A stretch of DNA of 64,000 nucleotides from Escherichia coli (lineage in GTDB: Bacteria; Pseudomonadota; Gammaproteobacteria; Enterobacterales; Enterobacteriaceae): the NCBI RefSeq assembly GCF_044324785.1, contig NZ_CP172127.1; one strand, written 5' to 3'. The notes beneath the pieces are model-generated. The model had not been told where the DNA came from. It saw nothing but the letters and a program-made list of their open reading frames with translations, and ran no database searches. Made by a program: the position numbers and the translations under genes. This document shows, piece after piece, positions 3,464 to 19,517 of this stretch. How positions within the stretch are numbered: position 1 is the first letter of the stretch; every line of letters begins with the position of its first letter.

Positions 3464-4264
3464 TTACGATAAATAGAGCTTACGCAGATAATGCGGCACT
3501 GCGTCCTCGGCGTTAGTACCAATCACTTCCAGCTCCGGATGCAGATCTTTCAGACGCTGGTGCGCACTGCCCATAATGCAGCCTTTCCCCGCCATCGACA
3601 GCATTTCGGCGTCGTTCATGCCATCGCCAAAGGCAATGCAATCTTGCAGGCTGTAGCCCAGTTTCTTCGCCACCGCTTCCAGCGCATGACCTTTCGACAC
3701 GCCGCCCGCCATCACTTCCAGACAGGTTAAGGTAGAGAAACTAACGTTGACGCGATCGCCCCAGCGAGCGTTGATCGCCTGCTCCAGCGGCAGAAGTTGT
3801 TCATGGGAATCGCAGGTGAAGAACACTTTGCTGACGCCTTCCGGCTCCAGTAATCCCGGCTCATACAGCGCATATTTGAACACCGCTTCTTTAAAAAAGC
3901 GCATCTCTTCCGGGCGATGGCGATTCATAAACCATTCGTCGTCGCGATAAACATTAGTAATGATGTCCGGATTGTCGTTGACTACGCCAAACAGATCGCT
4001 GGCAATGTCGCGATCCAGGTTATGAGCAAAAATCAGATTGCCATCCAGATCGTGAACGCGCGCGCCATTGGAGGTAATCATGTAAGACTTAATCTCCAGA
4101 TTATCGCGAATTTGCCCCACATCAACGTGGTGACGACCGGTCGCAAACACAAAGTTGATGCCGCGCGCGGTGAGCAGCTTCAGAGTTTCTTTGGCGTAAG
4201 GGGATAACGTATGGTCGGGAGAAAGTAACGTGCCATCTAAATCAGACGCAACAACCTGGTACAT
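3464..4264 (-). CDS. yigL: HAD-superfamily (Cof-type) sugar-phosphate phosphatase
   Basis: The ORF extends to 4390, but the start is placed at the internal Met (MYQVVASDLDGTLLSPDHTLSPYAKETLKLL...) giving ~266 aa; HAD motif DxDGTL at the N-terminus; 'cat' at 4262..4264. Confidence 0.85.
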   Translation of the reverse strand: MYQVVASDLDGTLLSPDHTLSPYAKETLKLLTARGINFVFATGRHHVDVGQIRDNLEIKSYMITSNGARVHDLDGNLIFAHNLDRDIASDLFGVVNDNPDIITNVYRDDEWFMNRHRPEEMRFFKEAVFKYALYEPGLLEPEGVSKVFFTCDSHEQLLPLEQAINARWGDRVNVSFSTLTCLEVMAGGVSKGHALEAVAKKLGYSLQDCIAFGDGMNDAEMLSMAGKGCIMGSAHQRLKDLHPELEVIGTNAEDAVPHYLRKLYLS

Positions 4265-4271
4265 AAGAAAT

Positions 4272-5294
4272 TTAAACCTCTGTAGAGCGGTTTCCGCTGG
4301 GTGAGTTATGCCTGTTGAAAAAATCAACGATGGCGTGGAGCGCGACTGAGCGCATTGCGTCCTTTTCAAAAAGGATCTCATGGTACGCACCTTTAATTAC
4401 CAACGGCCGTCCTCCTTCGACAGGATGGCCCGCGGCGGTGCGGAGTTCACAAAAACGATCGTGCATGCGGTTATCCACCACGCGTTCCTCTTCAGCTTGT
4501 AAGAGAAGCGTTGGCGTGGCGTCATCACCCGCACCGGCTAACACCTGTTCGCCAGCCAGAATACTTTCGCGTACCCAATGGTAGGTTGGCCCACCGACGC
4601 GAATCGTTGGGTCATCAGCATAGAAGCGTAAGTTACGTCGATATCGCTGTCTGCTGTGGGTCAGTACGTTGATAGCAAACGGCAACGCGCGCCAGCGCCC
4701 GGTGCCTATTGCATAGCCATCACGGAAACGTGGATGCGCTTCGGCCCAGTTGAGGATTTGCCGTGCCATAAATGACGGCATACGAATCACGATCCCAAAC
4801 ATTGGCGCAGTTAGCGCAATGGCGTCACATACACCTGGATGGCGTTGCAGAAATAATGTGGAGATCGCACCGCCCATTGAATGTGCCAGTATATAGCGTT
4901 TACGCCACGGACCGGGCTGAACCTCCTGTTGCCAGAATGCCGCCAGATCATCAACATAATCATTAAAGCGATTAACATGCCCGAGATGCGGATCGGCTAA
5001 CAGGCGACCGGAACGTCCCTGCCCGCGATGGTCGATGATTAAGACATCAAACCCCAAATGGAACAGGTCATAGGCCAGTTCCGCATATTTTACGTAGCTC
5101 TCAATACGCCCCGGGCAGATGACTACCACCCGGTCATGGTGCTGTGCGCGAAAACGGACAAAGCGCACCGGAATGTCATCCACACCAGTAAATTCTGCTT
5201 CATCACGCTGACGCCAGAAATCAGTCAGCGGTCCCATGGTAAAAGCAGCAAACGCGTTTTCTCTTGTTTCCCAGTCTTTTTGCTGCTGAAACAT
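4272..5294 (-). CDS. pldB: Lysophospholipase L2 (alpha/beta hydrolase)
   Basis: 340-aa ORF MFQQQKDWETRENAFAAF... with GHSMGG nucleophile-elbow motif; immediately upstream of yigL on the same strand. Confidence 0.92.
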   Translation of the reverse strand: MFQQQKDWETRENAFAAFTMGPLTDFWRQRDEAEFTGVDDIPVRFVRFRAQHHDRVVVICPGRIESYVKYAELAYDLFHLGFDVLIIDHRGQGRSGRLLADPHLGHVNRFNDYVDDLAAFWQQEVQPGPWRKRYILAHSMGGAISTLFLQRHPGVCDAIALTAPMFGIVIRMPSFMARQILNWAEAHPRFRDGYAIGTGRWRALPFAINVLTHSRQRYRRNLRFYADDPTIRVGGPTYHWVRESILAGEQVLAGAGDDATPTLLLQAEEERVVDNRMHDRFCELRTAAGHPVEGGRPLVIKGAYHEILFEKDAMRSVALHAIVDFFNRHNSPSGNRSTEV

Positions 5295-5404
5295 CGGGTA
5301 ATCTGCCTCTTAAACCACGTAAAATCGTTTTTTTAAGCGTGCCTGACACAACGCTGCGACAGTAGCGTATTGTGGCACAAAAATAGACACACCGGGAGTT
5401 CATC

Positions 5405-6025
5405 ATGACCTTAGAATGGTGGTTTGCCTACCTGCTGACATCGATCATTTTAAGCCTGTCGCCAGGCTCTGGCGCAATCAACACCATGACCACCTCGCTC
5501 AACCACGGTTATCGCGGCGCGGTGGCGTCTATTGCTGGGCTTCAGACCGGACTGGCGATTCATATTGTGCTGGTTGGCGTGGGTTTGGGGACGCTATTTT
5601 CCCGCTCAGTGATTGCGTTTGAAGTGTTGAAGTGGGCGGGCGCAGCTTACTTGATTTGGCTGGGAATACAGCAGTGGCGCGCCGCTGGCGCAATTGATCT
5701 TAAATCGCTAGCCTCTACTCAATCGCGCCGACATTTGTTCCAGCGCGCAGTGTTTGTGAATCTTACCAATCCCAAAAGTATTGTGTTTCTGGCAGCGCTA
5801 TTTCCGCAATTCATCATGCCGCAGCAGCCACAACTGATGCAGTATATCGTGCTCGGCGTCACCACTATTGTGGTCGATATTATTGTGATGATCGGTTACG
5901 CCACCCTTGCTCAACGGATTGCTCTATGGATTAAAGGACCAAAGCAGATGAAGGCGCTGAATAAGATTTTCGGCTCGTTGTTTATGCTGGTGGGAGCACT
6001 GTTAGCATCGGCGAGGCATGCGTGA
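5405..6025 (+). CDS. rhtB: LysE/RhtB-family homoserine/homoserine-lactone efflux protein
   Basis: 206-aa membrane [34 protein letters not shown]...; conserved position divergent from pldB. Confidence 0.92.
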
Positions 6026-6033
6026 AAAATAAT

Positions 6034-6063
6034 GTCGGATGCGGCGTAAACGCCTTATCCGAC
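6034..6063. repeat. REP (repetitive extragenic palindromic) element
   Basis: 'gtcggatgcggcgtaaacgccttatccgac' is a canonical imperfect palindrome of the GCCGGATGCGGCGTGAACGCCTTATCCGGC type, between convergent rhtB and rhtC. Confidence 0.8.
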
Positions 6064-6086
6064 TTACTCTGATGACGCGTCTGGCA

Positions 6087-6707
6087 TCAACGCGAAATAA
6101 TCAAATGAATGCCAAATCCGGCAAATAACGCCCCGGCAAAACCATCAATCCACTTCGCCAGACGTTGATAACCACGGCGCATTTGCGGCAGGGCAAACAG
6201 GCTGGCAACGACGGTAAACCACGCCAGTGTTTCGATAATAATCAACGCGAAAATGCCCCAGCGCTCAGTGGTGCCGACGTTATCGCCGACAAACAGCGAG
6301 AATACCGAACCAAAGTAGATAATCGCTTTCGGATTAGCGAGATTGGTCAGTAAGCCTTTCAGGAAACTGCGTCCGCTTTTTGCCAGTTCTACCTGTGGCG
6401 CAGGCGCAGAAACGACCTCTTTTTTCAGTGCGCTACGCAGCATCTGATAACCCATCCAGCAGAGATACAGGCCACCGCCCACCATAATCAGCGTATGCAG
6501 CCAGGCCATTTTTTCGATAATCAAATGCAGGCCAAGCAACGCAATCCCAGCCCAAACCATTACGCCGCAGGTAATGCCCAGCACGCCCATCATCGCTTCT
6601 TTACGGGAACGACTGACAGCGGTCTGAGAGACAAAAAAGAAATCGGGACCGGGGCTCATAAGCGCCACAATGTGCACCATGGCGACGGTGAGGAATAACA
6701 TCAACAT
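6087..6707 (-). CDS. rhtC: LysE/RhtB-family threonine efflux protein
   Basis: 206-aa hydrophobic ORF MLMLFLTVAMVHIVALMSPGPDFFF..., a paralogue of rhtB in the conserved adjacent position. Confidence 0.9.
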   Translation of the reverse strand: MLMLFLTVAMVHIVALMSPGPDFFFVSQTAVSRSRKEAMMGVLGITCGVMVWAGIALLGLHLIIEKMAWLHTLIMVGGGLYLCWMGYQMLRSALKKEVVSAPAPQVELAKSGRSFLKGLLTNLANPKAIIYFGSVFSLFVGDNVGTTERWGIFALIIIETLAWFTVVASLFALPQMRRGYQRLAKWIDGFAGALFAGFGIHLIISR

Positions 6708-6770
6708 ACATTAGACTCGCGGGGGAAACGTTTACGGAGTCTTCATCCTGGCACTTTTTTATCCTGCTGA

Positions 6771-8606
6771 CTACTCTTCGTCATCGCCATCAACATGCGC
6801 ACGAATCAGCGCCATGAACGGTTTGCCAAAGCGTTCCAGCTTGCGCATCCCAACGCCGTTAACGCTGAGCATTTCGCTGGCAGTGATCGGCATCTGTTCC
6901 GCCATCTCAATCAAGGTTGCGTCGTTAAATACCACGTACGGCGGGACATTGCTTTCATCGGCAATCGATTTACGCAGTTTGCGTAATTTGGCGAACAGTT
7001 TGCGATCGTAGTTGCCGCCGAAGGATTTCTGCATCGCTTTCGGTTTGAGCGCCACGATACGCGGCACGGCAAGTTGCAAAGAGGATTCGCCGCGCAGCAC
7101 CGGGCGCGCGGCCTCTGTCAGTTGTAGGGCAGAATGCTGGGCAATATTTTGCGTCACCAGGCCGAGGTGAATCAGCTGGCGGATCACGCTAACCCAATGT
7201 TCATGGCTTTTATCACGGCCCATGCCATAGACTTTCAGTTTGTCATGACCATAGTCGCGGATACGCTGGTTATTAGCGCCACGAATCACTTCCACCACAT
7301 AACCCATCCCAAACCGCTGATTCACACGACCAATGGTGGAAAGGGCAATCTGAGCATCGGTTGAACCATCGTATTGTTTCGGCGGATCGAGGCAGATATC
7401 GCAGTTCCCGCACGGCTCCTGCCGCCCTTCGCCAAAGTAGTTCAGCAGCACCAGACGACGGCAAGTTTGCGCTTCGGCAAACGCGCCCATCGCATTGAGT
7501 TTATGGCGCTCGATATCCTGCAACTGCCCCTGCGGTTTCTCTTCCAGACAACGGCGCAGCCACGCCATATCCGCTGGATCGTAAAACAGCATCGCTTCCG
7601 CGGGCAGGCCATCACGCCCGGCGCGTCCGGTTTCCTGATAATAGGATTCGATATTGCGCGGAATATCAAAGTGGACCACGAAGCGGACGTTTGGTTTATT
7701 GATGCCCATGCCGAACGCCACCGTCGCCACCACAATTTGCAGGTCATCGCGCTGGAATTTCTCCTGCACGTCGGCGCGAATATTATTTTCCAGCCCGGCA
7801 TGATAGGCCGCCGCGCTAATTCCCTTGCTTTGCAGGCGCGCAGCGGTGTCTTCTACTTTCGCCCGGCTGTTGCAGTAAATAATCCCCGACTTACCGCGTT
7901 GTTCCTGCACGTAGCGCATCAGCTGATCGAGAGGTTTGAACTTCTCCATCAACATGTAGCGAATATTCGGACGGTCAAAACTGCTAATTTGAATCAGCGG
8001 ATCGTTCAGCCCCAGCAGGCGCACGATATCCTGCCGCGTGGTGTCGTCGGCGGTGGCAGTCAGCGCCATAAACGGCAGCGTCGGAAAACGCTGACGCAGC
8101 TGACCGAGGGCAGCGTATTCCGGGCGGAAATCGTGGCCCCATTGGGAGATACAGTGCGCTTCATCAACGGCTAATAACACCGGATTCCAGTGCGCCAGAT
8201 GCTCAAGAAAGTTATCCAGCATCAGGCGTTCCGGCGCGATATAAAGCAGGCGGATTTGCCCGGTGCGACAGCCTGTCATAACTTCAAGTTGCTGCTCGCG
8301 GGTTTGCGTCGAGTTAAGGCACGCCGCCGCCACGCCGTTGGCTTGCAGTTGATCCACCTGATCTTTCATCAACGAAATCAGCGGTGAAACAACCACGGTA
8401 AGGCCGTTTAGCAATAAGGCAGGAATTTGATAGCAAAGGGATTTTCCGCCACCAGTGGGCATAACAACCAGGCAATCGCGACCGGAAAGTACGGTGTCGA
8501 TAATCTCTTCCTGGCCGGGGCGAAACTGTTGGTAGCCAAAGGTTTCTTGTAAAACCTGTTTAGCCCCTGACTCCAGATTCAACACTTCCGCCTGCGCCAC
8601 ATTCAC
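6771..8606 (-). CDS. recQ: ATP-dependent DNA helicase RecQ
   Basis: 611-aa ORF with helicase motifs (PTGGGKS, DEAH) and a C-terminal HRDC-like region; the true start may lie 2 codons downstream of the ORF start. Confidence 0.93.
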
Positions 8607-8618
8607 CCCGATTGCCTG

Positions 8619-8649
8619 AAATAAAAACAGGCGCTATTTTCAGCGCCTG
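8619..8649 (-). terminator. Intrinsic terminator upstream of recQ (terminates the pldA/8670..9128 transcript)
   Basis: Inverted repeat 'caggcgct...agcgcctg'; on the minus strand the stem is followed by a T-run (plus-strand 'aaataaaaa' at 8619..8627). Confidence 0.6.
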
Positions 8650-8669
8650 CGCGAGAAACTGCAATGCTT

Positions 8670-9128
8670 TTAGCGTCTGGCTGGATAATGTTGGATGCTG
8701 GATTCCAGATTTGCCAGGATCAAAGCGACATCGGCATCCGCCAAACGAAATTCCGCCTGCCATATATTCTCTGACGTATGAAATGTAGGGCATAGCCCGC
8801 AAGCCAGTATCACTTTGATAATAATGACATCACCGGAATACCCTGTGTATTCGAACTCCAGGCATGGCTCGGTAAATTCCAGATTTTTCTCCGGGTAGCC
8901 ATCGGGAGAAGGGCGCTGCAACAATGTGGTAAACCACCTATGAAGCTTTGTTAAGTCATATGTCCCTATTGCCGGATCTATCTTTTCAAACCGCTGATTT
9001 CCCTGCGTCACGCCCACTTTGAGGAATAACCAGTTACCATCCCAGAAATTACTGGCATCAGGATACTGATACCCCATAACATCCAGCGTCAAAGTAACGG
9101 CCAGCTCACTATTGCTTAACGTAATCAT
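8670..9128 (-). CDS. Hypothetical 152-aa protein (candidate accessory gene between pldA and recQ)
   Basis: Intact ORF MITLSNSELAVTLTLDVMGYQYPDASNFWDGNWLFLKVG...; no signal peptide or transmembrane segment seen; does not match any protein I recognise; sits between two core genes. Confidence 0.55.
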   Translation of the reverse strand: MITLSNSELAVTLTLDVMGYQYPDASNFWDGNWLFLKVGVTQGNQRFEKIDPAIGTYDLTKLHRWFTTLLQRPSPDGYPEKNLEFTEPCLEFEYTGYSGDVIIIKVILACGLCPTFHTSENIWQAEFRLADADVALILANLESSIQHYPARR

Positions 9129-9176
9129 ATCATTTGATTTTTAAACAAAAATTAGGTGCTGGCACTCTACCATGCA

Positions 9177-10046
9177 TTAAAACAGGTCGTTTAGCATAAC
9201 CCCCACACCAACGCGGGTCTGGTTGAAGTTATAGTCGATGAGCGATTCGCCATAGCCGCTGTAAACCTGAGTATAAAGGCGCACATGTTTGGTGATCGGG
9301 TAACTTAAGCCTAACTCCGCACCGCCGTAGCCCGTGTTCCAGTTGTACTGCCCTTTCGCACTGAGCACCGCATCACCGAGGTGATAGCCGATTTTAAGCT
9401 GGTAGTAACCCATATATTTGGTGATATCCGGGTTATCGTCAGTATTACCCACCACATACCACGGCTTCACCTCTACCAGCCAGTTACCGTTTTCTGCCAT
9501 CAGGCGTGTATAAAGGCGGTTCCAGCTGCGGGAGGTCGGGTCTGAACGCCCGTTAGAGTCGTGGTTATACCCCATCTCCACATCGCGCAGCGTCCAACCT
9601 GCAAAACGGTAATCGGTGGCAAAACCGAGGAACAATTGCGGTTCGTAGTTGGTTTCACGAAACGGTGAAGACTCTTCGCTATTGGACAGTTGCCACCAGG
9701 ATTTTTGCGTGTAAGACGCACCCAATACCGAGTTCGGGCCTAAAATCCCACGCCACAGCGGAAATGCCAGGCTCAACTGAAACTTTACTTCATCCTTACG
9801 CGCATTTTCCGCCCAGTCGTAACTGGCAATCGCTTCTTTATTCAGATCGCTGGTTTGGGTGTAGATGAGGTAGTTAGTGTCATAAGGATAGAGTGTGAAC
9901 GGATTGTCATGCTCCTGCAGCATATTGGCGATAATACTGCCACGCACCGCAGGCGCGTCATGCACCTCTTTCACCGTTGCCTCTTGTGCATATACTGCCA
10001 TAGGCAACATAAACACCGGCAACAACCAGCCCTGCAGAGTCCGCAT
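9177..10046 (-). CDS. pldA: Outer membrane phospholipase A
   Basis: 289-aa ORF MRTLQGWLLPVFMLPMAVYAQEATVKEVHDAPAVRGSIIANMLQEHDNPF... with N-terminal signal peptide. Confidence 0.93.
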   Translation of the reverse strand: MRTLQGWLLPVFMLPMAVYAQEATVKEVHDAPAVRGSIIANMLQEHDNPFTLYPYDTNYLIYTQTSDLNKEAIASYDWAENARKDEVKFQLSLAFPLWRGILGPNSVLGASYTQKSWWQLSNSEESSPFRETNYEPQLFLGFATDYRFAGWTLRDVEMGYNHDSNGRSDPTSRSWNRLYTRLMAENGNWLVEVKPWYVVGNTDDNPDITKYMGYYQLKIGYHLGDAVLSAKGQYNWNTGYGGAELGLSYPITKHVRLYTQVYSGYGESLIDYNFNQTRVGVGVMLNDLF

Positions 10047-12856: not shown

Positions 12857-13711
12857 ATGCAAATGAATAACATATTACTTCCGCCAATTAATATTCCCTG
12901 TACACTTTTCGAAACTATTAGTTTATTCGATGATTTTTCTGCTGATGATATGCAATATGGTGATATGGTAGAACAAGACTTTCTCTCACTCGGCCTAAGC
13001 GATATCTCAGCAAAAGTTGATCCTTACCGACTTATTAAATACCATTTCCCTGGCCCAGGTTCTATTAATGTTGCTTTTAGTGCCTCAAGTTCCGGAACAA
13101 AAATATCACAACGTGAATGCACTGATATTTTATTTGCAGAAATGAAAGAACTAGCAAAAATGTTTTCCTTTTTTGGACAATATAAAACACTTATCGAAGA
13201 TCTGATTGAAAATTTTAGATATGGAAATGGCAGCAATTTTCATAGCCAACAATTAAATTTATCTTTTCATGAAAAAATAAATAAATATGGTTATAATAGT
13301 CCAATACGAATAATCAAAGAATGTATCGAAAATGGCATTAATTCAACTCCCTCGACAGGATACCAACCTCTTATCCTGCAAAGCATTAAAACCAAATTAC
13401 TTTCATCAAGACTAAATAAATTTAATGACTTCAAGGACAGTTTTAATGGCTTAGGAATCAGTGTTCATGATATTTCAGCTCAAAAAATATCTCTTTTAAG
13501 TTTTCAAAAATACGCTATAGGATGGAGTGCAACAATTCATTTTGTAGCACAGGACCACTTCGGTCTCGATGTAACTGATATCAAAAACAAGACTTATAGC
13601 AAATATAGATTTTTTCGCATATGGTTCTTTTTACAACGGCATAAAGACTTTGCTTTCAAACCTTTTTTCACCAATTTTAACACTATAGAAAGAATCGAAA
13701 ATTATCTATGA
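12857..13711 (+). CDS. Hypothetical 284-aa protein, no signal peptide (candidate toxin/effector or defence protein of an inserted cassette)
   Basis: Intact ORF in strongly AT-rich DNA; better Shine-Dalgarno spacing suggests the second ATG (12863, MNNILLPP...) may be the start; contains a Cys (QRECTD) and downstream His residues (SVHDIS, TIHFVAQDHFGLD); stop overlaps the start of the next ORF. Confidence 0.65.
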   Translation: MQMNNILLPPINIPCTLFETISLFDDFSADDMQYGDMVEQDFLSLGLSDISAKVDPYRLIKYHFPGPGSINVAFSASSSGTKISQRECTDILFAEMKELAKMFSFFGQYKTLIEDLIENFRYGNGSNFHSQQLNLSFHEKINKYGYNSPIRIIKECIENGINSTPSTGYQPLILQSIKTKLLSSRLNKFNDFKDSFNGLGISVHDISAQKISLLSFQKYAIGWSATIHFVAQDHFGLDVTDIKNKTYSKYRFFRIWFFLQRHKDFAFKPFFTNFNTIERIENYL

Positions 13712-14199
13712 AAAGCAAACTCCAGAAAATTATATTATGTTTATTTCTTCTATGCTGCATCTATAATTTATGGACATTGCGTCCTGTACAGATTTTGTAT
13801 ACATACTCTGATGCTGGCAATTCAGTCTTTCTGGTCGTTGATCATCTGCCATGGACTGACAGCGATAAAATAAATTGGTATCTGAAGCATCAGAATGAAA
13901 TTAAAAATCAACATCCCCTACCAGAAGGTAGTTGGCATACCTGGTATGTCATTGATATCGGTAATGGCTTCACTGACTATAAAAAATATATTGAAGGGCC
14001 GTATGAAGATCTCTACTGTTTCCCGACAATTAAGAGCAATGATAATTGCATCGTGAAAAATTACTTAATGGTTATTAATGAATACCCTTATCGTAACACT
14101 CATATTGGTATTAACGATTTTACTGAGTATCAATTAACACAAGAAAATAAAATAGAGCGAGTTTTCAATCCGCATGACTTTAAAAAAGACAATTTTTAG
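13708..14199 (+). CDS. Hypothetical 163-aa protein with N-terminal signal/anchor segment (candidate immunity or partner protein)
   Basis: MKSKLQKIILCLFLLCCIYNLWTL... hydrophobic N-terminus; start ATG overlaps the upstream stop (ATGA at 13708..13711), implying translational coupling; AT-rich. Confidence 0.65.
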   Translation: MKSKLQKIILCLFLLCCIYNLWTLRPVQILYTYSDAGNSVFLVVDHLPWTDSDKINWYLKHQNEIKNQHPLPEGSWHTWYVIDIGNGFTDYKKYIEGPYEDLYCFPTIKSNDNCIVKNYLMVINEYPYRNTHIGINDFTEYQLTQENKIERVFNPHDFKKDNF

Positions 14200-14240: not shown

Positions 14241-15191
14241 TTACAACCAGTTCTTCCGCTTAAAGTACAGATACGGTGCCAGGCCCGCGAGGATCATAAA
14301 GATAATCGCGCCTGGGTAGCCGAAACTCCACTTCAGTTCTGGCATAAACTCAAAGTTCATCCCGTAGCTGGAAGCAACCAGCGTCGGTGGCAGGAACACC
14401 ACGGATACCACCGAGAAGATTTTGATGATGCGGTTCTGCTCGATGTTGATAAAGCCCATAGCCGCCTGCATCAGGAAGTTCACCTTCTGGAACAGGGATT
14501 CGTTATGCGGCAGCAGGGATTCGATATCTCGCAGGATTTCACGCGCCTGCTCCAGTTGCCCACCCGGTAAGCGTGCTTTACGTACCAGGAAGTTGAGCGC
14601 GCGCTGGGTATCCATCAGACACAGGCGAACTTTCCAGCCGATATCTTCCAGTTCCGCCAGCGTGGAGAGCGCCTCGTCGTACTCATCGCCCTGATGCCCT
14701 TCCATAATTACCCGGCTCAACTGCTCCAGGTCGCTGTAGATATTTTCAATTTCATCTGCCAACTGTTCGATTTTGGTTTCGAACAGATCCAGCAGCAGCT
14801 CGTAGGCATTACCGTCTACCATCGACTGGCTACGGGCACGCATACGATACAGACGGAATGCAGGCAATTCACGCTCACGCAGAGTAAACAGACGACCATC
14901 ACGGATGGTAAATGCCACAGTGGAGTTACCGGCGTGATCTTCCGCATCTTCAAAGAAGAAGAAGGAGTGAATATGCAGGCCGTCATCGTCTTCAAAGAAA
15001 CGTGCCGATGCTTCGATGTCTTCCAGTTCCGGGCGGGTTGCCAGGCTCTGGCCAAGTTCAGATTGTACGCGCAGTCGCTCGTCGTCGTCCGGTTCGACAA
15101 GATCAATCCATACTGCATTTACAAGGGGTTGTGACTCTTCGACTTCCAGCCGGGTCAGTCGGTTATTTTCCAGTTGAAATGCGCTCAGCAT
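14241..15191 (-). CDS. corA: Mg2+/Co2+ transporter CorA
   Basis: Start placed at [31 protein letters not shown]... (316 aa); C-terminal GMN motif ([11 protein letters not shown]); 'cat' at 15189..15191. Confidence 0.93.
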
Positions 15192-15560
15192 GACCGGGAC
15201 TCCCAATGCTTAAAATATCGGACAGTTCGGTGGGCACACAGAAACAAATTGGGTTTCAGACCATTAAACAGCCTGACTCAGCGCGACGGGAAAAATTGAG
15301 GTCGCTGACAACCGCTAAGGCTATCAGCAAAAAGGGATAGCCTTAGGAGTTGATCCTGGATGACAGGATAGTGAGCCAGTATCTACTGGGTGTGTCCAAG
15401 GCGAATGTCCTCTTAGAGTGATCGTGCGCGCATGTTACGCCAGCAAAATTTTGCCGTCAACACGCAACAGAACACCACAGAACAATAGTTGAACTTCGCG
15501 CTTTTTGGTACTCGTCAAGGTCGCTAACAGGATAAAAAAATCCCACATCCAGGACCTATA

Positions 15561-16325
15561 ATGGCGCATCGGCTACTCATTGGTAAAGGAATGATCACCT
15601 TGAATCTCAAACGGATTTTTCTCGCCCTCACCTTACTTCCCTTGTTTGCTGTTGCCGCTGATGATTGCGCACTCTCAGATCCGACGCTGACCGTACAGGC
15701 GTATACCGTTAATCCTCAAACAGAGCGGGTGAAAATATACTGGCAAAAAGCCAATGGCGAAGCGTGGGGAACGTTACATGCTCTGCTGGCGGATATGAAT
15801 AGTCAGGGTCAGGTGCAGATGGCGATGAACGGCGGCATCTATGATGAAAGCTATGCGCCGCTCGGTTTGTACATCGAAAACGGTCAGCAGAAGGTGGCGT
15901 TAAATCTCGCTTCAGGTGAAGGGAATTTCTTTATTCGTCCTGGCGGCGTGTTTTATGTCGCGGGAGATAAAATCGGCATCGTTCGTCTGGATGCCTTTAA
16001 AACCAGTAAAGAGATTCAGTTTGCGGTGCAGTCAGGGCCAATGTTGATGGAAAACGGCGTAATTAATCCGCGTATTCATCCCAACGTCGCCTCACGTAAA
16101 ATTCGTAACGGTGTTGGGATTAATAAACAAGGGAACGCCGTGTTTTTGTTGAGCAAGCAGGCGACAAATTTTTATGATTTTGCCTGTTATGCCAAAGCGA
16201 AACTGAACGTTGAGCAGCTGCTTTATCTTGATGGCACGATTTCACATATGTATATGAAAGGCGGGGCAATCCCGTGGCAACGCTATCCTTTTGTCACCAT
16301 GATTTCCGTCGAGCGGAAAGGTTAA
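15561..16325 (+). CDS. yigE: DUF2233-family secreted protein
   Basis: 254-aa ORF with signal peptide (…LALTLLPLFAVAADD); conserved position divergent from corA. Confidence 0.8.
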   Translation: MAHRLLIGKGMITLNLKRIFLALTLLPLFAVAADDCALSDPTLTVQAYTVNPQTERVKIYWQKANGEAWGTLHALLADMNSQGQVQMAMNGGIYDESYAPLGLYIENGQQKVALNLASGEGNFFIRPGGVFYVAGDKIGIVRLDAFKTSKEIQFAVQSGPMLMENGVINPRIHPNVASRKIRNGVGINKQGNAVFLLSKQATNFYDFACYAKAKLNVEQLLYLDGTISHMYMKGGAIPWQRYPFVTMISVERKG

Positions 16326-16407
16326 GCATTGTACACTCGAGGAGGCCAGACAAACTGGGGCTGGCTACACAGCTGGAAAATCATCAGATAAATGAAGGGA
16401 AACAAAA

Positions 16408-17310
16408 ATGAAAAAAACGCTCGCAACGTTATTTTTATTAACGTGTCTGGGATCATCATCCGCTTATGCGGATAACGCTTTGATTTTACAAACTGATTTT
16501 AGCCTGAAAGATGGTGCCGTCTCGGCGATGAAAGGGGTCGCATTCGGTGTTGACCATAATCTTAAAATATTTGATTTAACACACGAAATTCCACCGTATA
16601 ACATCTGGGAAGGCGCTTACCGCCTGTATCAGACCGCCAGTTACTGGCCGCAAGGTTCGGTATTTGTCAGTGTGGTCGATCCTGGTGTTGGTACAGACCG
16701 TAAATCGGTAGTGCTGAAAACCAAAAACGGTCAATACTTCGTTTCACCAGATAACGGTACGCTCACTTTGGTGGCACAAACTCTGGGTATTGATAGCGTC
16801 CGGGAAATCGACGAAAAAGCTAACCGCCTGAAAGGTTCTGAAAAGTCATATACCTTCCACGGTCGTGACGTGTATGCCTACACCGGTGCGCGTCTGGCTT
16901 CCGGGGCGATTACGTTCGAACAGGTGGGGCCAGAGCTTCCTGCAAAAGTTGTCGAACTTTCTTATCAGAAAGCAAAAGCAACAAAAGGTGAAGTGAAGGG
17001 CAATATCCCGATTCTCGATATTCAGTACGGCAACGTCTGGAGCAATATCAGCGACGAGTTGCTGAATCAGGCAGGAATCAAACTCAACGACACGTTGTGT
17101 GTGACCATTTCCGAAGGTTCCCAGCAAAAATACGCAGGGAAAATGCCGTATGTCGCAAGCTTCGGCGATGTGCCGGAAGGCCAGCCGATGGTGTATCTGA
17201 ACAGCTTGTTGAATGTTTCCGTGGCGCTGAATATGGATAATTTTGCGCAGAAACATCAGGTTGCGTCTGGTGCTGACTGGAATATTGATGTGAAGAAGTG
17301 CGCTAAGTAA
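16408..17310 (+). CDS. SAM hydroxide adenosyltransferase (DUF62) family protein with N-terminal signal peptide
   Basis: 300-aa ORF; signal peptide MKKTLATLFLLTCLGSSSAYA; then LILQTDFSLKDGAVSAMKGVAFGVD...THEIPPYNI...VSVVDPGVGTDRKSVVLKTKNGQYFVSPDNGTL, which matches the DUF62 N-domain pattern as I remember it. Confidence 0.7.
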   Translation: MKKTLATLFLLTCLGSSSAYADNALILQTDFSLKDGAVSAMKGVAFGVDHNLKIFDLTHEIPPYNIWEGAYRLYQTASYWPQGSVFVSVVDPGVGTDRKSVVLKTKNGQYFVSPDNGTLTLVAQTLGIDSVREIDEKANRLKGSEKSYTFHGRDVYAYTGARLASGAITFEQVGPELPAKVVELSYQKAKATKGEVKGNIPILDIQYGNVWSNISDELLNQAGIKLNDTLCVTISEGSQQKYAGKMPYVASFGDVPEGQPMVYLNSLLNVSVALNMDNFAQKHQVASGADWNIDVKKCAK

Positions 17311-17319
17311 GGTGCTGAT

Positions 17320-17350
17320 GCGGAATGCGGTGTGGCGCACCGCATTCCGC
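17320..17350. terminator. Perfect 31-bp palindrome between convergent 16408..17310 gene and uvrD
   Basis: 'gcggaatgcggtg tggcg caccgcattccgc'; no clear U-run, so could be a terminator or a REP-like structural element. Confidence 0.4.
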
Positions 17351-17354
17351 AACG

Positions 17355-19517
17355 TCACACCGTCTCCAACCGGGCGTAAGCCGCCACCAGCCATTTAATA
17401 CCCTGGCCCTGGAACGCCACCTGCAAACGGCTATGCTCACCGCTGCCTTCCATATTGACGATGGTGCCTTCACCAAACTTAGCGTGGCGTACGCGCTGGC
17501 CGAGCTTGTAGCCGCTGTCGTTCTCGACCATCGGCGTACCCATCCGTTGATGGCTGACCGGGCGGCTTACCGTGGCGCGCAGGCGCACCTCTTCCACACA
17601 CTCTTCCGGCAACTCACCGATAAAGCGCGACGGGCGATGGTAAACCTCTTTGCCATACAGACGGCGGGTTTCCGCGTAGGTCAGCGTCAGTTTCTGCATC
17701 GCGCGGGTTACGCCAACGTAGGCCAGACGGCGTTCTTCTTCCAGACGTCCGCCTTCATCCAGCGACATCTGACTTGGGAACATACCCTCTTCCATACCGA
17801 CGATAAACACCTGCGGGAACTCCAGCCCTTTCGCCGAGTGTAGCGTCATCAACTGCACCGCGTCCTGCCAGGTATCCGCCTGCCCTTCACCTGCTTCCAG
17901 TGCCGCATGGGAGAGGAACGCCTGCAGCGGCATTAAATCTTCGTCTTCTTCGTTGTAGCTGAACTGGCGCGTCGCCGTCACCAGTTCCTCCAGGTTTTCG
18001 ATACGCGTCTGACCTTTTTCGCCCTTCTCCTGCTCGTACATGGTGCGCAAGCCGGAGTCTTTAATTACCCGGTCAGTCTGTACATGCAGCGGCATATCGG
18101 CAGTTTCCTGCGCTAAGGCGTCGATCAGTTCCATAAACCGTTGCAAGGCACTGGCAGCACGTCCGGCGAGGGCTTTTTCCTGCAACAGTTCACGACATGC
18201 CTGCCAGAGTGTTAACTGACGATCGCGCGATGTCTGACGTACCACGTCCAGCGTCCGGTCACCAATACCCCGCGTTGGCGTATTCACCACGCGCTCAAAC
18301 GCCGCGTCGTCGTTGCGGTTGGCAATCAGGCGCAGATACGAGAGCGCGTCTTTGATTTCCTGGCGTTCGAAGAAGCGCATCCCGCCGTAAATACGGTACG
18401 GCATACTCGCCTGCAACAGTGCTTCTTCCAGCACACGCGACTGGGCGTTACTGCGGTAGAGAATGGCGCACTCGGCGAGCGCCCCGCCGTTGTCCTGCCA
18501 GGTCTTGATACGGTTAACCACAAAACGCGCTTCGTCGAGTTCGTTAAAAGCGCAATAGAGGGAAATCGGCTCACCGTCCGCGCCATCGGTCCACAGTTTT
18601 TTACCCAGACGCCCGTTGTTGTTTTCAATCAGGGCGTTAGCGGCGCTCAGAATATTGCTGGTAGAGCGGTAGTTTTGCTCCAGACGAATAGTTTCGGCAC
18701 CGGGGAAATCATTAAGGAAACGCTGAATATTCTCCACCTGCGCCCCGCGCCAGCCGTAGATTGACTGGTCGTCATCGCCAACGATCATCACTTTGCCGGT
18801 GTCGCCCGCCAGCAGGCGGATCCACGCGTACTGAATGTTGTTGGTATCCTGGAATTCGTCCACCAGGATGTTAGTAAAACGTTCGCGGTAGTGTTGCAGG
18901 ATATGCGGCTTGTTAAGCCACAACTCGTGAGCACGTAGCAGCAGCTCGGCGAAGTCCACCAGGCCCGCGCGGTCACACGCTTCCTGATACGCCTGATACA
19001 CCTTCTGCCAGGTCTGCTCCACCGGATTACCGTAGCTTTGAATATGATGTGGACGCAGGCCTTCATCTTTCTGGCTGTTGATGTACCACATTGCCTGGCG
19101 CGGCGGCCACTGCTTCTCGTCGAGGTTCATCGCCTTGATTAGGCGTTTGAGCAGGCGTAGCTGGTCCTCGCTGTCGAGGATCTGAAAATCCTGCGGCAGA
19201 TTGGCGTCCATATGGTGCGCACGCAGCAGACGGTGCGCCAGCCCGTGGAAGGTGCCGACCCACATGCCGCCCTGGCTGGTGCCCATCAGCTGCCCGATAC
19301 GATGACGCATCTCCGCCGCCGCTTTGTTGGTAAACGTTACCGCCATAATCGAGTATGGCGAGCAGTTTTCCACGCTCATCAGCCAGGCGATACGATGCAC
19401 CAATACGCGCGTCTTACCACTGCCCGCGCCCGCCAGCACCAGAAGGTTGCTGCGTGGCGCGGCCACCGCTTCGCGCTGTTTGTCATTAAGGCTGTCGAGC
19501 AGGTAAGAAACGTCCAT
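17355..19517 (-). CDS. uvrD: DNA helicase II (UvrD)
   Basis: The ORF extends to 19703, but the start is placed at [38 protein letters not shown]... (720 aa); 'cat' at 19515..19517; SF1 helicase motifs. Confidence 0.93.
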   Translation of the reverse strand: MDVSYLLDSLNDKQREAVAAPRSNLLVLAGAGSGKTRVLVHRIAWLMSVENCSPYSIMAVTFTNKAAAEMRHRIGQLMGTSQGGMWVGTFHGLAHRLLRAHHMDANLPQDFQILDSEDQLRLLKRLIKAMNLDEKQWPPRQAMWYINSQKDEGLRPHHIQSYGNPVEQTWQKVYQAYQEACDRAGLVDFAELLLRAHELWLNKPHILQHYRERFTNILVDEFQDTNNIQYAWIRLLAGDTGKVMIVGDDDQSIYGWRGAQVENIQRFLNDFPGAETIRLEQNYRSTSNILSAANALIENNNGRLGKKLWTDGADGEPISLYCAFNELDEARFVVNRIKTWQDNGGALAECAILYRSNAQSRVLEEALLQASMPYRIYGGMRFFERQEIKDALSYLRLIANRNDDAAFERVVNTPTRGIGDRTLDVVRQTSRDRQLTLWQACRELLQEKALAGRAASALQRFMELIDALAQETADMPLHVQTDRVIKDSGLRTMYEQEKGEKGQTRIENLEELVTATRQFSYNEEDEDLMPLQAFLSHAALEAGEGQADTWQDAVQLMTLHSAKGLEFPQVFIVGMEEGMFPSQMSLDEGGRLEEERRLAYVGVTRAMQKLTLTYAETRRLYGKEVYHRPSRFIGELPEECVEEVRLRATVSRPVSHQRMGTPMVENDSGYKLGQRVRHAKFGEGTIVNMEGSGEHSRLQVAFQGQGIKWLVAAYARLETV

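Follow-up and report, generated by a model that had tools for sequence, protein, structure and literature searches.

A DUF62-family enzyme with a predicted signal peptide in the yigE-uvrD interval of Escherichia coli and its Helicobacter pylori orthologue HP0709

The physiological role of the S-adenosylmethionine (SAM) hydrolases of the DUF62 family is still debated. Here we describe a member of this family that carries a predicted signal peptide and is encoded by an open reading frame (ORF) of 300 codons at positions 16408..17310, plus strand, of a 64,000-nucleotide stretch of Escherichia coli DNA (contig NZ_CP172127.1 of assembly GCF_044324785.1), referred to below as the window. Taking the evidence as a whole, we are somewhat inclined to regard the product as a SAM hydrolase exported to the periplasm by the general secretory (Sec) pathway, encoded by an old resident of the Escherichia chromosome, a relative of which would have passed to Helicobacter pylori.

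Several described systems provide a frame for comparison. PH0463 (PhDUF62) of Pyrococcus horikoshii, a SAM hydroxide adenosyltransferase of solved structure (PDB 1WU8, 2WR8), has the same two-domain fold as the E. coli protein (template-modelling score, TM, of 0.86), about 31% identity and the same catalytic triad. It is cytoplasmic and starts at the catalytic domain, whereas the E. coli protein, whose activity is predicted, adds a signal extension of 21-23 residues and the cysteines C231 and C298. The (R)-SAM hydrolases (Salinispora StDUF62, MJ1651/PDB 22UY, Sulfolobus, Haloferax SAMH) belong to the same family and have the same predicted chemistry, leading to adenosine and methionine; their intracellular clearing role needs the cytoplasm, while the E. 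coli protein carries a conserved predicted signal peptide. The halogenases (SalL, ClA1/ClA2, FlA) show 23-30% identity to it in structure-based Foldseek alignments, and SalL and ClA1 share its fold (TM 0.88-0.91), but residues of the halide pocket (Tyr70 and Gly131 in SalL; Thr80 and Ser158 in FlA) stand in place of the triad that the E. coli protein has. Finally, HP0709 of H. pylori, of uncharacterised function, has the same length, the same predicted signal-peptide architecture and the same pair of cysteines; it lies in the context mraW-HP0708-HP0709-homA/B and is widespread in H. pylori, whereas the E. coli gene occurs in part of the species only.

Family membership and the catalytic triad

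The reading frame begins at the first possible start codon past an in-frame stop, and its translation contains all the motifs from which an earlier note on this DNA had proposed a DUF62-family protein with a secretion signal. The membership of the product in DUF62 is beyond doubt, because Pfam domains, sequence matches in the PDB and predicted fold agree. The profile search that bears out this assignment matched both SAM_HAT_N (PF01887; E = 4.9e-53), over the full length of the model, and SAM_HAT_C (PF20257; E = 3.9e-18). The sequence matches in the PDB comprise the solved DUF62, chlorinase and fluorinase chains (E = 1e-43 to 1e-20), with 2zbu as the best of them (1.3e-43). Furthermore, an alignment-based AlphaFold2 model of the 300-residue monomer, which replaced a single-sequence model with a predicted local distance difference test score (pLDDT) of 40, reached a mean pLDDT of 94.5; in the DUF62 superfamily the enzyme is a homotrimer, with active sites where subunits meet. 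With this model, Foldseek retrieved the DUF62 protein of T. maritima (2zbu), SalL and ClA1 at target-normalised TM of 0.89-0.91, the range over 2zbu, SalL, ClA1, FlA and PH0463 being 0.79-0.91 (E 1e-32 to 1e-25). The RefSeq annotation already places the gene in this family, and the gene itself is thus not new.

Within DUF62, a His-Arg-Asp triad that activates the nucleophilic water is found in the hydrolases only, the halogenases being without it (reviewed in PMC10491745). Residues D91, R98 and H151 of the E. coli protein align residue for residue with D68, R75 and H127 of PH0463, and D91 is kept in 73 of the 80 family members aligned. At the sites aligned with SalL, the Tyr and Tyr-Gly of that chlorinase are replaced by Asp and His-Gly, and the fluorinase model TIGR04507 gives 83.9 bits against a cut-off of 400. 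Since the triad is intact and the scores lie below the fluorinase and equivalog cut-offs, the protein is, as predicted from these residues and scores, a hydrolase-type DUF62 enzyme outside the narrowly defined characterised subfamilies. D30, N116, the three triad residues and the FHGRD motif are retained under strong purifying selection. Moreover, no alignment position separates exported from cytoplasmic members, the triad and the ligand-contact residues being equally conserved in both. The sequence gives no sign of a changed substrate, and the suggestion in the earlier note that the real substrate may be a different one is neither favoured nor disfavoured.

Predicted export signal and the signal-bearing branch of the family

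In a rule-based reading, the N-terminus (MKKTLATLFLLTCLGSSSAYA, with DN following the predicted cut) has a basic n-region, MKK, with two lysines, a hydrophobic h-region at residues 5-14 with a Kyte-Doolittle 9-mer maximum of 2.32, and A-Y-A at positions -3 to -1 of the cut, with Asp next. The same N-terminus contains neither a lipobox ([LVI][ASTVI][GAS]C; LLTC has Thr at -1) nor a twin-arginine (RR) motif, and Aeromonas and some alleles of H. pylori lack the Cys of LLTC. The crystallised cytoplasmic homologues begin at residues 24-28 of the E. coli protein, so that residues 1-23 constitute an extension without a structural role; in the AlphaFold2 model, pLDDT is about 57 for residues 1-21 and above 90 from residue 24 onward. 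Signal-peptide-like N-termini, divergent in sequence, are present in the orthologues of H. pylori, Aeromonas, Neisseriales, Pasteurellaceae, Thorsellia, Edwardsiella and Chitinophaga. When the E. coli and H. pylori proteins are compared, identity is 62% over the signal peptide and 92.8% over the mature part, and the frame is intact at a synonymous divergence (dS) of ~0.94. The n/h/c anatomy, the N-terminal extension and the conservation in all close orthologues sustain the signal peptide noticed earlier, and the protein is very probably exported.

The cysteine content adds another layer of evidence. Exported bacterial proteins tend to be poor in cysteine, and the DUF62 domains of signal-bearing members have a mean of 1.4 Cys, versus 4.0 in signal-less members (Mann-Whitney p = 5.5e-6, not phylogeny-corrected). 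The mature E. coli protein has exactly two, C231 and C298, which are both present in 20 of the 20 orthologues of the gene's clade (all Proteobacteria plus Helicobacter and one metagenome-assembled genome (MAG) of Desulfobacterales) and both absent in the eight more distant relatives compared (8/8). This pattern probably reflects a single evolutionary event, and it suggests C231-C298 as a candidate disulfide.

Export had been called unexpected in the earlier note, the known substrate of the family being cytoplasmic. Against the characterised cytoplasmic members this holds, but within the family it does not. Among the 150 nearest cluster representatives at 50% identity, a sample biased toward relatives of the exported query, a simple classifier recognised about 60 Sec-type and 6 lipoprotein-type signals, 48 proteins with no signal and 38 fragments or unclassifiable sequences. 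Because some 66 of the 150 clusters and every close orthologue carry a signal, exported DUF62 proteins appear to be a large unstudied part of the family and not an E. coli oddity. As to whether signal-bearing members form a clade, they dominate around the query in a neighbour-joining tree built roughly from 80 full-length representatives, and the signal-less members make up a few separate clades; strict monophyly is not claimed from a distance tree on a biased sample. No paper describing exported DUF62 proteins was found in the literature searched, an apparent match in bioRxiv 2024.10.15.618418 concerning DUF6273, and the recognition of this branch is new here.

The yigE-uvrD locus and a probable transfer to Helicobacter

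The position of the gene between yigE and uvrD, and its suspected variability among strains, have both been borne out. A 99.6%-identical genome is annotated as corA, ysgD, yigE, "SAM hydrolase/SAM-dependent halogenase family protein" and uvrD, in this order. The whole interval is present in 2293 of 5426 complete E. coli genomes (42%), the remainder matching the flanks only, and the K-12 type is devoid of the ORF. In a K-12 derivative, homology breaks off immediately past the stop codon of yigE and is picked up again at the uvrD-side hairpin; the gap (spacer 3927-4072 of the K-12-type locus) is filled by a palindrome resembling repetitive extragenic palindromic elements, GCCGGATGCGGCGTAAACGCCCTATCCGGCCTAC, with no gene remnant. 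In two other species-level Escherichia lineages the gene is found at the same place with 93-94% DNA identity, the values for uvrD and corA being 93.5-94.5% and 95-96%. As the divergence of the ORF matches that of its flanks, the gene is an old resident of the yigE-uvrD interval, and the K-12 state is a loss, as in many E. coli lineages. This ancestral status and the loss in K-12-like strains are new here. Carriage by plasmids was discarded, the two "plasmid" matches being chromosome-sized records of 4.9 Mb.

Beyond Escherichia and Shigella, the closest proteins are those of H. pylori and H. acinonychis, which have 300 residues and are about 90% identical over the full length; a single 90%-identity cluster by itself contains 2579 sequences. 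Complete H. pylori genomes carry the gene (6001-6903 of the extracted loci) with mraW/HP0708 on one side and the homA/B outer-membrane-protein locus on the other; it is therefore HP0709/jhp0648 (UniProt O25413), whose ungapped identity to the window ORF is 90.7% for the protein and 84% for the DNA. The nonsynonymous divergence (dN) between E. coli and HP0709 is 0.051 and dS is 0.94, and the resulting dN/dS of 0.055 indicates that the protein is functional in both species. The earlier account, right on family, signal and locus, had overlooked this orthology at about 90% identity, and the near-identity with HP0709 is new here. Automatic annotations of H. pylori genomes label the gene "adenosyl-chloride synthase / salL".

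Among GTDB species representatives, the next relatives are at 65-76% identity (Aeromonas 69-76%, Edwardsiella 73%, Haemophilus paracuniculus 73%, Neisseriales/Burkholderiales MAGs 71-75%, Thorsellia 69%, Bibersteinia 65%), with further ones at 55-66% in Bacteroidota, Verrucomicrobiota, Synergistota and others. Further Helicobacter species are absent from the best 80 loci, as are Salmonella, Klebsiella and Citrobacter, in a scan that relies on exact peptide patterns and is not proof of absence. In neighbour-joining trees with 500 bootstrap replicates, Escherichia and Helicobacter group together (100%) and are joined by Edwardsiella (88%), while Escherichia (97%) and Helicobacter (95%) are each monophyletic. 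A nesting of H. pylori within the E. coli alleles is ruled out, all E. coli alleles being 87-90% identical to H. pylori and both groups being monophyletic. The copy of Edwardsiella piscicida (4183-9736 of the locus) lies between an RhtB/LysE-like gene and recQ-pldA-rarD, in the chromosomal region where the E. coli gene is also found, though there on the opposite side of recQ. The GC content of the H. pylori gene is 42.9% versus 37.5% in its flanks, and that of the E. coli gene 47.2% versus 47.7% in yigE. Furthermore, the E. coli protein is consistently closer to the outgroups than its H. pylori counterpart. Taken together, the tree grouping, the Edwardsiella locus, the GC contrast and the outgroup distances point to an Enterobacterales donor, near the sampled Escherichia but not among them, from which the gene was transferred into the H. 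pylori lineage. The flanks had to be dropped as a clue to the direction of transfer, since DNA homology between the two species (blastn) is restricted to 16382..17316, i.e., the gene with 26 nucleotides upstream of its start and 6 past its stop. No report of this transfer was found in the literature searched.

Some further observations concern the Helicobacter gene. HP0709 adjoins the homA/B locus and a prophage-integration hotspot, and a deposited "phage" genome (PQ159899.1) holds the bacterial block uvrA-hopE-mraW-HP0708-HP0709-homA. Carriage by phages was rejected, this match being a prophage record with a block of bacterial genes. Unannotated "phage" records of Staphylococcus and Listeria contain signal-less DUF62 proteins, 45-47% identical; some of these records are oddly large or small and may hold host DNA. 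A single-nucleotide polymorphism in HP0709 was a hit in a genome-wide association study (GWAS) of gastric cancer (PMC6090961). In a comparison of biofilm and planktonic transcriptomes of H. pylori, a "salL" with a value of 2.87 is listed together with metI, the identity of this "salL" with HP0709 being unconfirmed (PMC6212823). Neither finding reveals what the gene does.

The features of the locus are collected in Table 1. The hairpin in the gap between the ORF and uvrD is probably a terminator common to these two convergent genes; it has no T run and was missed by the terminator scan. Scans for promoters and terminators over 15150-17450 did no better than chance, no regulator-binding site upstream of yigE was obvious by eye, and the PADLOC defence models matched neither the ORF nor yigE. 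An IS4 insertion is found in the yigE/ORF region of E. coli CE-O153H30 (NZ_CP172336.1), so that the locus is disrupted by insertion sequences in some genomes. In addition, the rarD-corA interval, about 2 kb from the DUF62 gene, holds at 12857-14199 a second strain-variable islet with a GC content of 0.30-0.34, coding for a YPO3983-family protein (TIGR03034, 435 bits) and a DUF943 protein; in K-12 this place is taken by yigG and yigF.

Table 1. Features of the yigE-uvrD locus (window coordinates)
Feature	Position	Strand	Basis or remark
yigE, upstream neighbour, signal-peptide-bearing phosphodiester glycosidase family protein, in all strains	15561..16325	+	annotation of matching genomes
Leader with Shine-Dalgarno-like GAAGGGA	16382..16407	+	DNA homology with the H. 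pylori HP0709 locus starts here
Predicted Sec (signal peptidase I) signal peptide MKKTLATLFLLTCLGSSSAYA, codons 1-21, predicted cut after A21	16408..16470	+	rule-based
Predicted mature DUF62 enzyme, residues 22-300 (SAM_HAT_N 26-174; SAM_HAT_C 198-291)	16471..17307	+	Pfam, PDB match, AlphaFold2/Foldseek
Codon D91, triad Asp	16678..16680	+	aligns with PH0463 Asp68 and SalL Tyr70
Codon R98, triad Arg	16699..16701	+	aligns with PH0463 Arg75
Codon H151, triad His in the TFHGRD motif	16858..16860	+	aligns with PH0463 His127
Codon C231, half of the Cys pair, candidate periplasmic disulfide	17098..17100	+	co-occurrence in orthologues
Codon C298, other half of the Cys pair	17299..17301	+	co-occurrence in orthologues
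Hairpin, perfect 13-bp stem GCGGAATGCGGTG-TGGCG-CACCGCATTCCGC, in the ORF/uvrD gap	17320..17350		K-12 homology resumes here
uvrD, convergent downstream neighbour	17355..19517	-	ORF and annotation

Proposed function and alternatives

If the protein is indeed a periplasmic SAM hydrolase, the reading towards which we lean, removal of the 21-residue signal peptide would leave the mature enzyme in the periplasm, where a water molecule activated by the Asp91-Arg98-His151 triad would attack C5' of an adenosyl-sulfonium compound. The likeliest substrate would be exogenous SAM, and the products, adenosine and L-methionine, could be imported by the ordinary nucleoside and methionine transporters. A close relative of the Escherichia gene would have passed to the H. 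pylori lineage, in which it would now be HP0709. By analogy, the proposed logic is that of UshA 5'-nucleotidase, CpdB and AphA, the periplasmic scavenging hydrolases of E. coli, in which a Sec-exported hydrolase converts a charged, non-importable compound into importable nucleoside and amino-acid products, although their folds and chemistry are unrelated to those of DUF62.

Several points weigh against periplasmic hydrolysis of SAM. Turnover is slow in the characterised DUF62 enzymes, which favour the (R,S)-epimer and whose physiological role is disputed (PMC12120602). The equivalog models for (R)-SAM hydrolases, NF058624 and NF053629, give 131.5 bits versus a cut-off of 350 and 116.9 versus 470. 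The detection of HP0709 in outer-membrane-vesicle proteomes of H. pylori speaks for export, but it is weak evidence for localisation, as the lists also hold ribosomal proteins (PMC8756444). The literature search found no experiment or enzyme assay with this protein or with HP0709. Nor is a scavenging role backed by any transporter or salvage gene conserved nearby; indeed, neighbourhood clustering of three ORFs on each side at 80 loci found no partner family recurring across taxa. Lastly, scavenging would presuppose the presence of SAM outside cells in the gut or the stomach. As an observation apart, three related Neisseriales/Burkholderiales MAGs have, downstream of the exported DUF62 gene, a deoB-like (phosphopentomutase-like) gene and then one with a deoC-type aldolase-like C-terminus, both as judged by eye; these neighbours, seen in one lineage only, are the sole hint of a link to nucleoside catabolism.

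A different reaction in the same compartment has to be considered, unlikely as we hold it to be: the exported enzyme would act not by hydrolysing SAM but on another 5'-substituted or sulfonium adenosine (decarboxylated, epimerised or degraded SAM, or a SAM-like toxin), or with a nucleophile such as chloride. That SAM is an intracellular metabolite and that the NCBIfam equivalog scores fall short of their cut-offs agree with such a reaction, as do the doubts cast on function even for cytoplasmic DUF62 proteins (PMC12120602). Against it, the hydrolase triad is intact and halogenase-type residues are absent, the fluorinase model reaches 84 bits versus a cut-off of 400, and exported and cytoplasmic members are not told apart by any alignment position. 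In the YLNSRG motif of SalL, the conserved Ser precedes an Arg that binds the methionine carboxylate in SalL and in the fluorinase; its replacement by Leu in the E. coli protein (YLNSLL) would speak for another reaction, but cytoplasmic hydrolases such as 2zbu are likewise without that Arg.

It is far less probable that the protein stays inside the cell as an ordinary cytoplasmic (R)-SAM hydrolase, translated from a downstream start or held by an uncleaved hydrophobic anchor. A start at the TTG of codon 25, for example, would coincide with the starts of cytoplasmic homologues; yet a Shine-Dalgarno-like sequence precedes the ATG at 16408, in a leader that lies within the DNA conserved with H. 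pylori, and the 23 N-terminal codons have remained in frame and signal-peptide-like across a dS of ~0.94 and in all orthologues. Moreover, a membrane anchor would need a longer hydrophobic stretch than the roughly 10-12 residues present here, cysteine is scarce in the exported class, and the orthologue clade has its Cys pair. Just as little credence can be given to an exported protein that binds adenosine or a nucleoside but is no longer an enzyme: evidence for catalysis from neighbourhoods or experiments was not found, but strong purifying selection has preserved every residue of the triad and of ligand binding.

Returning to the periplasmic hydrolase, the role proposed for DUF62 hydrolases is the clearing of epimerised SAM inside the cell (bioRxiv 10.1101/2025.08.29.672840). 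As this leading role is impossible for an exported enzyme, the large exported branch is a direct clue to the existence of another role in the family. Furthermore, HP0709, widespread in a gastric pathogen, belongs to this branch together with the E. coli gene, which 42% of the complete E. coli genomes carry, and the identity of about 90% between the two proteins makes a clean case of a gene passing from one phylum to another, into the genome of a pathogen. E. coli strains with and without the gene occur naturally, which makes the question easy to test.

H. pylori needs methionine from outside and relies on purine salvage. It may be, and we put this forward as a tentative and rather doubtful extension, that exported DUF62 proteins form a widespread unrecognised extracytoplasmic pathway, taking adenosine and methionine from environmental SAM or related adenosyl-sulfonium compounds, and that a relative of the Escherichia gene, captured by the ancestor of H. 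pylori, became widespread there by supplying these nutrients in the stomach. If true, such a harvest pathway would explain the presence of HP0709 alleles in the gastric-cancer GWAS (PMC6090961), and it would be the first clear physiological role for the DUF62 family.

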